Of a DNA stretch of 7,164 nt, positions 2,448-6,694 are shown one piece after another. Both the position numbers and the translations under genes were made by a program. Position 1 is the stretch's first letter. Every line of letters begins with the position of its first letter. The DNA is from a virus (lineage: Duplodnaviria; Heunggongvirae; Uroviricota; Caudoviricetes). Under the pieces are notes generated by a model that worked only from the letters and a program-made list of their open reading frames with translations, ran no database searches and was not told the origin of the DNA. The stretch lies in IMG/VR virus record IMGVR_UViG_2778261085_000001, one strand, 5' to 3'.

Positions 2448-2810
2448 ATGGCGACTTTGACCAAAGAAGAACGGTTTACCAAAGAGCAGTTAATAGCCCA
2501 CGCAGAGGAGACTATTGAATCACAGAGACTGTGCATACCAGGTACAATCGACCATGACCTCATTCGCGCATATAAGATGGATATTGCTGTTCTGGAAATT
2601 GCACTGCAATCGCTGGCAGCAGCGCCAGTTGGTAAATTTTATGAATACAAACCAGTGGGGTATCAGCGTCTGGTCGACGAGTTAACCATGCAGGTAAAGC
2701 AGTTAACCTGGCAACTGAGGAAAGCGAAGCCGGACTGCAAACTGCCGGATAAGGTGATGGACTACCTGGAGCGAAACGGACTGATAAGCGTGGAGGATAT
2801 TTTACGATGA
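2448..2810 (+). CDS. Phage hypothetical protein (120 aa)
   Basis: ATG at 2448 lies 1 nt after the preceding stop. No family recognised. The stop overlaps the start of a downstream small ORF (ATGA). Confidence 0.6.
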
Positions 2811-2890
2811 CCTGGCCTGAAGCATTCACAACGGCAGGAATTGCGATGGCGGTGGCGCTGATGGTGTATTCGATTTGCCGCTGGGGATAA
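2807..2890 (+). CDS. Small hydrophobic peptide (27 aa, [27 protein letters not shown]), likely a single-pass membrane peptide; absent from the ORF track
   Basis: ATG at 2807 overlaps the upstream stop (ATGA) and has a GGAGG SD at 2793-2797. It is the last ORF before the operon terminator at 2901-2926. Confidence 0.4.
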
Positions 2891-2895
2891 CAAAC

Positions 2896-2926
2896 AAAAA
2901 CCCCGGATTGACGGTCCGGGGTTTTT
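2896..2926 (+). terminator. Intrinsic (rho-independent) terminator ending the early operon; probably bidirectional
   Basis: Perfect 7-bp stem CCCCGGA (2901-2907) pairing with TCCGGGG (2915-2921), 7-nt loop, then TTTTT (2922-2926). An A-run precedes the stem, so the reverse strand also sees a hairpin followed by a U-run. Confidence 0.8.
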
Positions 2927-3085
2927 GAAGGAAACAAACAGAAACAACAATTGCCGTTATCTGTTGCCACCAATGACAAGTAAACGTATCACAGGCGAGC
3001 GCATTGCGCCGTTCTGACGCGCATAAGGTAGATCAGATTTCAGGAGCTGGCAATAAAAAGTTGGTGGAAAGTCTGATGCAGATGT

Positions 3086-3112
3086 GAAAAGACAGCCCCG
3101 AAAACGGGGCCG
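3086..3112 (-). terminator. Intrinsic terminator for the minus-strand 96-aa gene
   Basis: GCCCCG (3095-3100) pairs with CGGGGC (3105-3110) across an AAAA loop. On the minus-strand RNA the hairpin is followed by UGUCUUUUCA. It lies about 8 nt after the stop codon at 3119-3121. Confidence 0.7.
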
Positions 3113-3118
3113 GATTTA

Positions 3119-3409
3119 CTAAGCACCAATAATTCTGAAGATGTAATCCTTGAAGATGAGAGCCAGAGCTGCAGCAACAATAAACCACTGGAGTCGATCA
3201 AACTTGGTTTCCAGCTTGTTGAACCGTCTTTCGGTTTCTTGCTCCATTTTGTCGAGGCGCTTATCTATAACGTTCAGGCGTGTATCCATCTCACGACGGA
3301 GGTTATCAACGTTTTCTTGTGTTGCCAGGTGTTGCATGTTCTGCTGGCGATGCAACAAAGCATTCAGCACATCGCTGGTGCTGAACTCAATTTTTTTGTC
3401 GTCACTCAT
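3119..3409 (-). CDS. Coiled-coil protein with C-terminal transmembrane anchor (96 aa); possibly XhlA-like or DUF1640-like
   Basis: ATG at 3407-3409 (minus) has a strong AGGAGG SD 5 nt upstream. The central region is charged and heptad-like (RREMDTRLNVIDKRLDKMEQETERRFNKLETKFDRLQ); the C-terminus is hydrophobic (WFIVAAALALIFKDYIFRIIGA). It is a stand-alone opposite-strand gene with its own promoter and terminator. The family assignment is from memory and uncertain. Confidence 0.6.
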   Translation of the reverse strand: MSDDKKIEFSTSDVLNALLHRQQNMQHLATQENVDNLRREMDTRLNVIDKRLDKMEQETERRFNKLETKFDRLQWFIVAAALALIFKDYIFRIIGA

Positions 3410-3414
3410 GCTGG

Positions 3415-3453
3415 CCTCCTGTATAGGGAATCGTGGTACAGGAAAAACCTGTT
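3415..3453 (-). promoter_or_regulatory. 5'UTR with two mutually exclusive hairpins, one of which overlaps the SD of the 96-aa gene
   Basis: Plus-strand motifs are CCTGTA (3418-3423), TACAGG (3437-3442) and CCTGT (3448-3452). On the minus-strand mRNA this reads 5'-AACAGG-UUUUU-CCUGUA-(13 nt)-UACAGGAGG-CCAGC-AUG. The central CCUGUA can pair either upstream (SD free) or downstream with UACAGG (first half of the SD buried). Confidence 0.4.
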
Positions 3454-3459
3454 AAGTAA

Positions 3460-3488
3460 ATAGTAAAGTTAATCGCTTCACTCATCAA
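3460..3488 (-). promoter_or_regulatory. Putative sigma70-type promoter for the 96-aa minus-strand gene
   Basis: On the minus strand: -35 TTGATG (plus 3483-3488), 17-nt spacer, -10 TACTAT (plus 3460-3465). The predicted transcription start is near plus 3453, at the first UTR hairpin. Hexamer matching by eye only. Confidence 0.3.
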
Positions 3489-3508
3489 GAGAGGAAGCAC
3501 AGAAGCGG

Positions 3509-3538
3509 TTGACGACAACAGAAATCAGAGACAATATT
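3509..3538 (+). promoter_or_regulatory. Putative divergent sigma70-type promoter for the 3591 to 5668 gene block
   Basis: TTGACG at 3509-3514, 18-nt spacer, AATATT at 3533-3538. If real, transcription starts near 3545, which excludes the track's TTG start at 3537 and favours ATG 3591. Confidence 0.3.
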
Positions 3539-3590
3539 GCCGCACGCCAGCCTGAACAACTGGCACCTGCTGCGCCAGCAGAGAAAACAG

Positions 3591-5676: not shown

Positions 5677-5694
5677 AGCCCGATTACTCGGGCT
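5677..5694. terminator. GC-rich hairpin between convergent Q and the minus-strand moron; candidate bidirectional terminator
   Basis: AGCCCGA (5677-5683) pairs with TCGGGCT (5688-5694) across a 4-nt loop, giving a 7-bp stem. The minus-gene stop codon (plus TTA at 5684-5686) lies in the loop. Flanking runs are only moderately T-rich, so efficiency is uncertain. Confidence 0.4.
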
Positions 5695-6694
5695 TATCTT
5701 CAACATCTTTCACATGTAAAATTACGGCGGACTTGATATCTCCATCAATGTGTTTGGCATTGATGCTTAAATGCACAGGCTTTCTTTCCCATTCAGCTCG
5801 CTGTAAGGCTTCTTTGTTCCCTGATTCATCAAGGAATATATCCTGAACAACGCAGGTCAAACGTTGATCAGAATCGACCTTTCGAACCTTAACTTTGAAG
5901 CTTTCGGGGTCGGTATTATTCACTTCTTCGATACGGTATATACCGTCTATTCTCATTTCAACTGAGCGCCGACGAGCATTTGTTACTAGCTCTTTTGCCG
6001 TTTCTGAATCTATTGTGACACCGTCAATTTCTGCTGAATCTGAACGCACGAAAGATTTAACCATGGTGGTTTTAGCGTCATAAGACATTCGATCCATATT
6101 GTCGAGTAGAGGTTTTTTAGCCACCATTTCTGAGATGATTTGGAGGCGTTTTGTTTCCTCCTGTGTCATCACTTGCATTGCGCGTAGGTGTTCTTTGTCG
6201 CCTTCTTTAGCAATTTCAGCCAACCGAGTATCTTTACGGTTATCCAGATAGCGTTTGAAGACGGTTACACCGCCCCATATAACGGCAGCACCGAGAACCG
6301 TAAATACAATCTCTGTGGCGTTCATTTTCCCTACCAGTTCGTGCGTAAGCTTGCTTAGGAAGCCATCAATGTTAATCTCTACAAGAGATGAACCTTGCTC
6401 TACTGTAACTTCAATTTCTAAAGCATCAAGTTCTTCTTTTGTTAGCCTGCGGACATCAGGAGTTCCGAACTTTGCTAGCGCATAAGACTTATTGAGTTGC
6501 GATTGCATTTCAACAAATCCTTTCATAACTGAAGGTGTGAGTGATTTGTTGAATTTTTCACCAGTCAACCTGATGGTTAGACTTGGCCAACCATTGAAAC
6601 TAATTTTTTCGGGTAAAGCTTGTCCGTTTAGGTAACGTTCAAGTAATTCAAAAGCTTGCTGTTCAGACTCAACGTCGTAATGTATTTCGTACAA
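5684..6694 (-). CDS. AT-rich moron: hypothetical protein with a central transmembrane helix (336 aa); function unknown, candidate phage-exclusion protein
   Basis: A long minus-strand ORF with a TTG start at 6692-6694. There is an in-frame stop five codons upstream and no ATG or GTG between, so TTG is the only possible start for the full-length ORF; a GAGGG SD lies 6 nt upstream. One clear hydrophobic segment (ATEIVFTVLGAAVIWGGVTVF) sits between two soluble charged domains. G+C in four 60-nt lines I counted by hand is 38-47 percent, against about 58 percent in two lines of the DUF968-like gene. It is not a porin: no signal peptide and no C-terminal Phe. Confidence 0.65.
   Translation of the reverse strand: MYEIHYDVESEQQAFELLERYLNGQALPEKISFNGWPSLTIRLTGEKFNKSLTPSVMKGFVEMQSQLNKSYALAKFGTPDVRRLTKEELDALEIEVTVEQGSSLVEINIDGFLSKLTHELVGKMNATEIVFTVLGAAVIWGGVTVFKRYLDNRKDTRLAEIAKEGDKEHLRAMQVMTQEETKRLQIISEMVAKKPLLDNMDRMSYDAKTTMVKSFVRSDSAEIDGVTIDSETAKELVTNARRRSVEMRIDGIYRIEEVNNTDPESFKVKVRKVDSDQRLTCVVQDIFLDESGNKEALQRAEWERKPVHLSINAKHIDGDIKSAVILHVKDVEDKPE

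Follow-up and report, generated by a model that had tools for sequence, protein, structure and literature searches.

The closest described counterparts, by architecture, of the gene analysed here are the DUF1640 (CCDC90-like) proteins, whose stalk starts with a β-layer neck of the form [aliphatic]-A-T-K-[polar]-[DE] (Hartmann et al., PMC4786415); in the member MCUR1 a head, a β-layer neck, a stalk and a transmembrane domain are combined, and the head binds its partner directly (PMC6801532, citing Adlakha et al. 2019). By position, the closest counterparts are the cargo genes of lambdoid prophages: in the Qin prophage of Escherichia coli K-12, rem, hokD and relBE adjoin ydfU, and ydfV and flxA lie antisense. 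We have analysed a 7,164-nt stretch of viral DNA (the window; IMG/VR virus record IMGVR_UViG_2778261085_000001, Caudoviricetes), which belongs to a lambdoid prophage of E. coli, and in it a minus-strand gene for a protein of 96 amino acids (aa). We show that the prophage carries this gene as an intact accessory element (a ‘moron’), at a variable slot in its nin-like early region; we file its product as a new head-type variant of the DUF1640-like architecture and not as a member of Pfam DUF1640. Overall we lean, with modest confidence, towards a lysogen-expressed, tail-anchored protein composed of head, neck, stalk and anchor.

The plus strand of the window carries, in order, DUF977, DUF4406, an Ead/Ea22-like gene, DUF7167, a 120-aa gene, a gap, a 90-aa gene, DUF968 (YdfU-like), RusA and the antiterminator Q. 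When a 1.1-kb query across the cassette was compared with 5,426 complete E. coli genomes, flank matches were obtained in 3,653, nearly all of which match the right flank only (from ~3541 on), and four genomes cover most of the query. The cassette itself (3086–3490) is present in 6 of the 5,426 genomes, at 76–86 % identity, and tblastn gave no match in 50,697 phage genome records. The breakpoints of the slot lie at 2890–2894 on the left and at 3508–3541 on the right. Just inside the left breakpoint, positions 2891–3025 match, at 98.5 % identity, a segment that lies 240–374 nt ahead of hokD in strain NS-NP030, and 2891–3059 match the segment at the corresponding position of strain A8 at 88.8 % identity; since these first 135–169 nt of the slot are common to hokD-type variants, the cassette proper runs from ~3060 to 3507.

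Elsewhere the slot is occupied by hokD (strains EC958 and SCU-104 and an O157:H7 strain), by an antisense RelE/ParD pair (O111, strain 442/2), by hokD together with a 110-aa homologue of the 96-aa gene (strain C8), by a homologue alone (strains C5 and 04-00955) or, in one prophage whose flank is 97 % identical to positions 2201–2894, by an antisense DUF1640 gene plus hok, the end of the antisense gene being 25 bp past the left breakpoint. Every other E. coli allele examined (93–129 aa, those of 108 and 129 aa included) has the same slot and the same orientation. The gene is thus present or absent among otherwise homologous prophages, and it shares with the cargo of the rem–ydfU region (hokD, relBE, parDE) the slot, an autonomous organization, a terminator of its own and a patchy distribution; the RelE/ParD cargo is also antisense. 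The earlier note, which had proposed a cargo hotspot and had placed toxin–antitoxin genes in the equivalent slot of Qin-type prophages, is supported on both counts. The small Qin genes for FlxA and YdfV likewise lie roughly in this region and run antisense to the ydfU operon. The FlxA profile that had been put forward for comparison (PF14282) gave no Pfam match to the 96-aa protein, BLASTP against Qin FlxA returned E = 11, and BLASTP against YdfV produced no alignment.

A search over 5.8 billion proteins recovered 89 relatives of the 96-aa protein, from E. coli, Photorhabdus, Erwinia, Salmonella, Serratia symbiotica, Vibrio and metagenomes, none of which has a specific Pfam domain. When 1.84 billion representatives were searched with a profile, 67 proteins were obtained at E ≤ 1e-10, followed by a long tail of weaker matches, many of them multi-stretch alignments to the repeat region. 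All full-length members consist of the same four modules (head, neck, stalk and tail/anchor), with the consensus ..SDVLNALLH..QH in the head, (L/Y)ATQES(V) in the neck and KFDRLQWFIVAAALALIFK(D/E)Y.. in the tail, and with F86 and K87 of the anchor invariant. The stalk is built of tandem heptads such as RFEQVDK, in about 1 to 8 or more copies, giving proteins of 70 to 173 aa, and the E. coli alleles differ also by 18-residue (7+11) units. The spacing from neck to anchor falls into two mod-7 classes that cover 72 of 87 members, as expected from a continuous coiled coil with an occasional stutter. In the window protein, residues 34–74 fit a heptad register (8 of 12 a/d positions are L, I, V, M or F), and the Kyte–Doolittle mean is 3.05 over residues 76–86 and 1.93 over the 19 residues 76–94, in agreement with the coiled coil and C-terminal hydrophobic anchor that had been proposed. 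Anchoring of the C terminus in a membrane therefore appears likely, and, judged by hydropathy, it is plausible that the segment spans the membrane.

Scans of the protein and 55 relatives against Pfam, NCBIfam, PHROG and PADLOC gave generic coiled-coil matches only; PHROG 6701, 12015 and 5553, which match many family members, carry no function, and our literature searches, which covered DUF1640, hotspots of lambdoid phages and prophage proteins with tail anchors, brought up no study of the family. This family is unannotated, with a distinct head type for which there is no Pfam model. Among solved structures, a profile search of the Protein Data Bank (PDB) gave as its best match the long helix of influenza HA2 (residues ~39–86; E about 4e-4), in which S-T-Q-x-A-I-D aligns with A-T-Q-E-S-V-D, together with the following heptads. 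HA2 is a trimeric coiled coil and is listed among the β-layer N-caps (PMC4786415). This marginal match almost certainly reflects convergent coiled-coil features, with no functional implication.

Comparison with DUF1640 itself gives a divided answer to the earlier suggestion of that profile. The Pfam model PF07798 did not match the window protein even at E ≤ 10 and is not among the top families of the 55 relatives; the likeness lies in neck, stalk, natural chimeras and genomic position. The neck, LATQEN, fits 4 of the 6 positions of the β-layer consensus. When the family profile was aligned by hhalign with 49 prophage DUF1640 proteins (length 77–172 aa), a probability of 92.4 % was obtained over 50 columns, with LATQES placed on VATKRD; a reversed control reached 59 % and 16 shuffles ≤10 %, and the heads of the two families were left unaligned. 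Moreover, three proteins (P0222, P0256 and P0338) are chimeras in which a DUF1640-like head and a VATKRDL neck are fused to RFEQVDK heptads and a DRLQWFIVAAAL anchor. The heads of P0222 and P0338 have sub-threshold CCDC90-like matches (E 9e-5 and 2e-4, respectively), and that of P0256, which has no Pfam match, is DUF1640-like by sequence only. Such natural chimeras imply exchange of modules at the neck or stalk, and, taken together with the profile–profile alignment and the shared slot, they link the two architectures despite the failure of the Pfam model.

In both kinds of protein, which are small, an N-terminal head is followed by an A-T-(K/Q) neck, a variable heptad stalk and, at the C terminus, a short hydrophobic anchor that ends in lysine (the anchor after the coiled-coil stalk being assigned here by Kyte–Doolittle only); both are encoded antisense in the same position of the same lambdoid slot, and in Salmonella prophages their genes are adjacent. 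There are also differences: the DUF1640 head, FDTLKFVETLEAAG..., is replaced by the shorter, unrelated head SDVLNALLH..QH (the pattern FDT.KFV..LE.AG...QA typical of DUF1640 heads is absent from the 96-aa protein), in the neck of the 96-aa family Q stands in place of K and S/N in place of D/E, and the anchor sequences differ (WFIVAAALALIFKDY against MLVVAVGVLAAIIKF). A heterogeneous group of prokaryotic and organellar trimers that differ in head type was reportedly described by Adlakha et al. in 2019.

Codon comparisons establish the 96-aa open reading frame (ORF) as a real, intact gene under purifying selection: over 44 conserved codons it differs from the Photorhabdus gene by 20 synonymous and 3 non-synonymous changes, and from another E. 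coli allele by 15 and 2, respectively. That it might be a chance ORF or a functionless, decayed remnant, as its weak promoter and the database annotation of its product (‘hypothetical protein’ only) could suggest, is an idea to which we give practically no credence, since the selection pattern already refutes it and since, in addition, the 89 homologues extend over Enterobacterales and Vibrio with conserved ends, the Shine–Dalgarno (SD) sequence and the terminator are conserved, and the coiled-coil register is kept despite the changes in length.

Beyond E. coli, a scan of species representatives found the family in 27 of 185,579 genomes, nearly all of them Enterobacterales or Vibrio; more distant relatives from a cluster look-up are mostly unnamed metagenomic proteins. 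In all 13 Photorhabdus species representatives recovered (L007 6628–8396 and L035–L050) a single gene lies directly downstream of icd, with no partner gene and with a widely varying number of heptads. In E. coli, lambdoid phages are known to attach at the 3' end of icd, so the icd-linked homologue may be an old, retained prophage remnant. Within E. coli, Salmonella and Vibrio it is a rare gene that is confined to mobile elements. The Vibrio homologues are found on plasmids (43 records) and also in a conjugative-element-like contig, adjoining ArdC, an anti-restriction gene and a TIR-NTPase gene, and in one metagenomic contig a family gene sits within an islet of CopG, Phd/YoeB and ParD genes. 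In Salmonella prophages (L014 8001–8671 and L015 6221–6879) a family member of 124 aa is convergent with a true DUF1640 gene (95–99 aa), the two 3' ends overlapping by 4 nt. In Erwinia tracheiphila (L013 8001–8751) a HicB-like antitoxin gene lies 26 nt downstream on the same strand, with no HicA called nearby, which could be a coincidence in a genome rich in insertion sequences or an unusual pairing.

The expression signals of the gene, and the other features of the locus, are collected in the table. The ORF starts with ATG, and its TAG stop is directly followed by TAA. The hairpin of the gene's own terminator, six bases beyond the stop, has 8 pairs (7 of them G–C) and a 4-nt loop, with a predicted energy of −17.5 kcal/mol (RNAfold); this terminator is kept in loci L001 and L002 and replaced by a different hairpin in L003. 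Between 2700 and 3900, 7 terminator-like sites were found, compared with 1.4 ± 1.3 in shuffled sequence. The gene is convergent with a plus-strand operon that stops at a strong hairpin; the A5/T5 arms of this hairpin would enable it to terminate on both strands, so that it ends the upstream operon and serves as a backup terminator for the minus-strand gene. The stand-alone antisense unit between plus-strand phage genes that the earlier note had described, with the upstream operon ending at a strong terminator of its own, is thereby confirmed. Of the further claim that the unit is complete, ORF, SD and terminator stand, whereas the promoter is a candidate only, as discussed below.

Features of the locus (positions are those of the window; −, minus strand; +, plus strand)
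Feature	Positions	Strand	Basis or remark
Bidirectional intrinsic-terminator hairpin, AAAAACCCCGGA...TCCGGGGTTTTT	2895..2927	both strands	13–15 pairs, −23.0 kcal/mol
Spacer common to hokD-carrying slot versions	2891..3059		cassette swap junction ~3026–3060
Gene's own terminator: hairpin CGGCCCCGTTTTCGGGGCTG (3112–3093) and tail TCTTTTCACA	3083..3112	−	scan, RNAfold
Coding sequence, 96 aa and TAG	3119..3409	−	ORF call, 89 homologues, synonymous changes far in excess of non-synonymous
Anchor, aa 73–96 (LQWFIVAAALALIFKDYIFRIIGA)	3122..3193	−	11 strongly apolar residues, F86-K87, acidic residue 88, amphipathic tail
Stalk, aa 34–72, heptad coiled coil	3194..3310	−	length in relatives varies by 7, 11 or 18 residues
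Neck, aa 28–33 (LATQEN), β-layer-like motif	3311..3328	−	A29, T30, Q31 and E32 nearly invariant
Head, aa 1–27 (MSDDKKIEFSTSDVLNALLHRQQNMQH)	3329..3409	−	A17, L18, L19, H20 and H27 nearly invariant in 55 sequences
Shine–Dalgarno sequence AGGAGG	3415..3420	−	5 nt 5' of the ATG
Candidate σ70 promoter, TTGATG (3488–3483), 17 nt, TACTAT (3465–3460)	3460..3488	−	8/12, picked by eye
Neighbouring promoter-like site TTGACG-18-AATATT, outside the cassette	3509..3538	+	faces the rem-like 90-aa/DUF968/RusA/Q genes

Two RNA folds near the start of the gene were seen in addition. In the predicted leader (3410–3452, minus strand), TTCCTGTA pairs with the SD region TACAGGAGG (−10.8 kcal/mol), and an alternative ACAGG/CCTGT hairpin lies just upstream of this SD-occluding fold; the leader may exert translational control of the 96-aa gene. 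Within codons 9–16 there is a perfect 8-bp hairpin (3363–3385), beside an A7/T7 run and terminator-like on the plus strand, which is retained in Erwinia with one compensatory pair and lost in Vibrio and other taxa. An antisense RNA of a type I toxin–antitoxin system at this hairpin was considered and rejected: no antisense promoter was found, and the hairpin follows from the F-S and L-N codons. Rfam at E ≤ 1 returned three sub-threshold matches, on the terminator hairpin, and nothing near the gene.

Considering how a lysogen-expressed, tail-anchored protein might work, we suggest that a weak promoter of its own would drive the gene in the repressed prophage, and that in the lytic cycle it would be silenced by antiterminated early transcription running through it head-on; silencing of this kind would place the job of the gene in the lysogen, which speaks against a lysis role. 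The product would be inserted post-translationally and tail-first into the inner membrane, with its N terminus cytoplasmic, because it has no signal peptide and has a charged N-terminal part of 74 residues. It would form a parallel, probably trimeric, coiled coil, as in DUF1640/CCDC90B proteins, and the small head would be held off the membrane at a distance set by the number of heptads. As to what such a protein is for, we propose, tentatively and well short of an even chance, a binding module tethered to the membrane and of benefit to the lysogen or the mobile element (by phage exclusion, an abortive response or element maintenance), given that the genes found alongside the family or in its slot (hok, relBE, parDE, DUF1640 and anti-restriction regions) suggest a role in mobile-element conflict or maintenance.

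Several observations weigh against this overall reading. With the threshold of the promoter scan set at 9/12 matches, no σ70-like site of at least 9/12 was found on the minus strand upstream of the gene, the candidate picked by eye reaching 8/12; expression in the lysogen, which a moron would owe to a promoter of its own, is thus presumed. Although Erwinia and Photorhabdus have a 9/12 promoter-like site ~30 nt upstream of the homologous gene (the equivalent position in Salmonella and Vibrio has none), the counts are at chance level, so that the promoter remains a candidate. The anchor has only 11–14 uninterrupted apolar residues, with K87, D88 and R92 inside the segment. AlphaFold predicts a single helix (residues 11–95) of moderate confidence (predicted local distance difference test score, pLDDT, 69) from a monomer model, which is silent on the oligomer state; the trimer and the β-layer are inferred from the 4/6 motif fit and the profile alignment, and the signal of that alignment, though above background, is partly coiled-coil periodicity, as the reversed control indicates. 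Finally, the suggested function is drawn from the neighbourhood alone, and PADLOC gave no specific defence match, only weak ones to the coiled-coil-rich JetA/JetC, LmuB and PDC-M26A (best E ~1e-5).

Alternatively, the gene might encode a small membrane-damaging toxin (with a hok-like effect, or an XhlA-like ‘haemolysin’), oligomers of whose anchor would permeabilize the inner membrane, so that cells die or stop growing on induction, in abortive infection or post-segregational killing, which we think improbable. The slot is indeed common to hokD and type II toxin genes, but the E. coli gene has no adjoining antitoxin gene (no partner ORF, antisense promoter-like site or Rfam match was found), it has no sequence kinship to the toxin–antitoxin cargo and none of its antisense RNA signals, and the 96-aa product far exceeds Hok in size and consists largely of cytoplasmic coiled coil. 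The invariant charged residues within the hydrophobic anchor would suit a toxin, whereas the conserved bulk of the protein is the cytoplasmic head and neck, which would be superfluous for a pore-former. Weak matches to PHROG ‘hemolysin’ families occur in 4–5 of the 55 members (phrog_1193, best 9e-6; phrog_937, best 2e-5), yet the XhlA Pfam score is far under its cut-off; the possible SD-occluding leader fold could limit translation, yet the strong SD speaks for ready translation. And if the HicB-like neighbour in Erwinia hints at an antitoxin, the homologue is a lone syntenic gene across the 13 Photorhabdus species, and such stable, solitary carriage makes a constitutive toxin unlikely. A lysis factor, like a free-standing toxin, is an unlikely role. 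An XhlA-type accessory that aids holin and endolysin at phage release, to which we assign a very small likelihood, would account for the gross architecture, since XhlA (PF10779; a membrane-associated lysis protein of Bacillus PBSX-like phages) is also phage-borne, of ~90 aa and composed of a coiled coil and a C-terminal hydrophobic segment. The similarity of sequence is sub-threshold, however (E = 0.13; 12.9 bits against a cut-off of 34.7), XhlA is absent from the 25 most-matched families of the 55 relatives, and the gene is away from any lysis genes: it lies upstream of DUF968, RusA and Q, outside the late lysis cassette and antisense to lytic transcripts, a position that largely refutes such a role. 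Its Gram-negative hosts, its occurrence on plasmids and at a chromosomal non-phage site, and its absence from the 50,697 phage records argue in the same direction.

The gene could also encode a domesticated factor of host physiology, i.e. a membrane-tethered scaffold on a host complex (ribosomes, the divisome or a transporter), comparable to the tail-anchored ElaB/YqjD or to MCUR1 on MCU, with prophages and plasmids as mere carriers. The core-like, syntenic gene of Photorhabdus and the strong purifying selection on head and anchor are what such a factor would display, and the direct binding of a partner by the head of the DUF1640 relative MCUR1 (PMC6801532) supplies a precedent; on the other hand, the gene is rare and limited to mobile elements in E. 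coli, Salmonella and Vibrio, it alternates with toxin–antitoxin genes, and it has no Pfam similarity to DUF883 or to other known tail-anchored host factors. We accordingly see little chance that this is the answer, and retain the lysogen-expressed, tail-anchored protein of head, neck, stalk and anchor as the favoured reading.

Some neighbouring features of the window deserve mention in their own right. The promoter-like site outside the cassette (3509–3538) is back-to-back with the candidate promoter of the cassette; the RelE/ParD version of the slot is homologous from 3508 on and so includes it, the hokD versions only from 3541. On the left, an unannotated hydrophobic ORF of 26 codons (2808–2888, plus strand), whose start codon shares the sequence ATGA with the stop codon of the 120-aa gene, ends just ahead of the bidirectional terminator, and its DNA is 92–94 % identical in three other prophages that have different upstream genes. 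Directly after Q there is a second antisense, cargo-like gene (5684–6694, minus strand; 336 aa) with a central hydrophobic stretch ..IVFTVLGAAVIWGGVTVF.., which has no match in Pfam or PADLOC; the G+C content around it is ~0.40–0.44, as against ~0.52–0.57 in the DUF968 region. BLASTP of a neighbouring 108-aa ORF against Rem gave nothing. In the prophages of loci L028–L031, which have the 129-aa allele in the slot, genes for heat-labile enterotoxin type II (LT-II; Enterotoxin_a / Pertussis_S1 / LT-IIB) lie downstream of Q.

Finally, bacterial DUF1640-like proteins have no known function, and the finding that the present family and canonical DUF1640 genes are interchangeable antisense cargo in a lambdoid slot that hok, relBE and parDE otherwise use makes the question testable in E. 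coli, where natural allelic series differ only in stalk length. It is conceivable, though in our estimation rather unlikely, that the family and the DUF1640 genes that share its slot are unrecognized single-gene protective modules on mobile elements, tail-anchored trimeric coiled coils whose small cytoplasmic head would capture or sense, at the inner membrane, a component of an invading phage or plasmid and whose heptads would set the reach or the specificity. If true, this would be the first function for bacterial DUF1640-like proteins and would add a new occupant to the lambdoid defence hotspots. Were the gene to protect the lysogen, it would be a further example of the small defence or exclusion factors that prophages carry; were it to prove inert, it would remain a tidy example of moron exchange.

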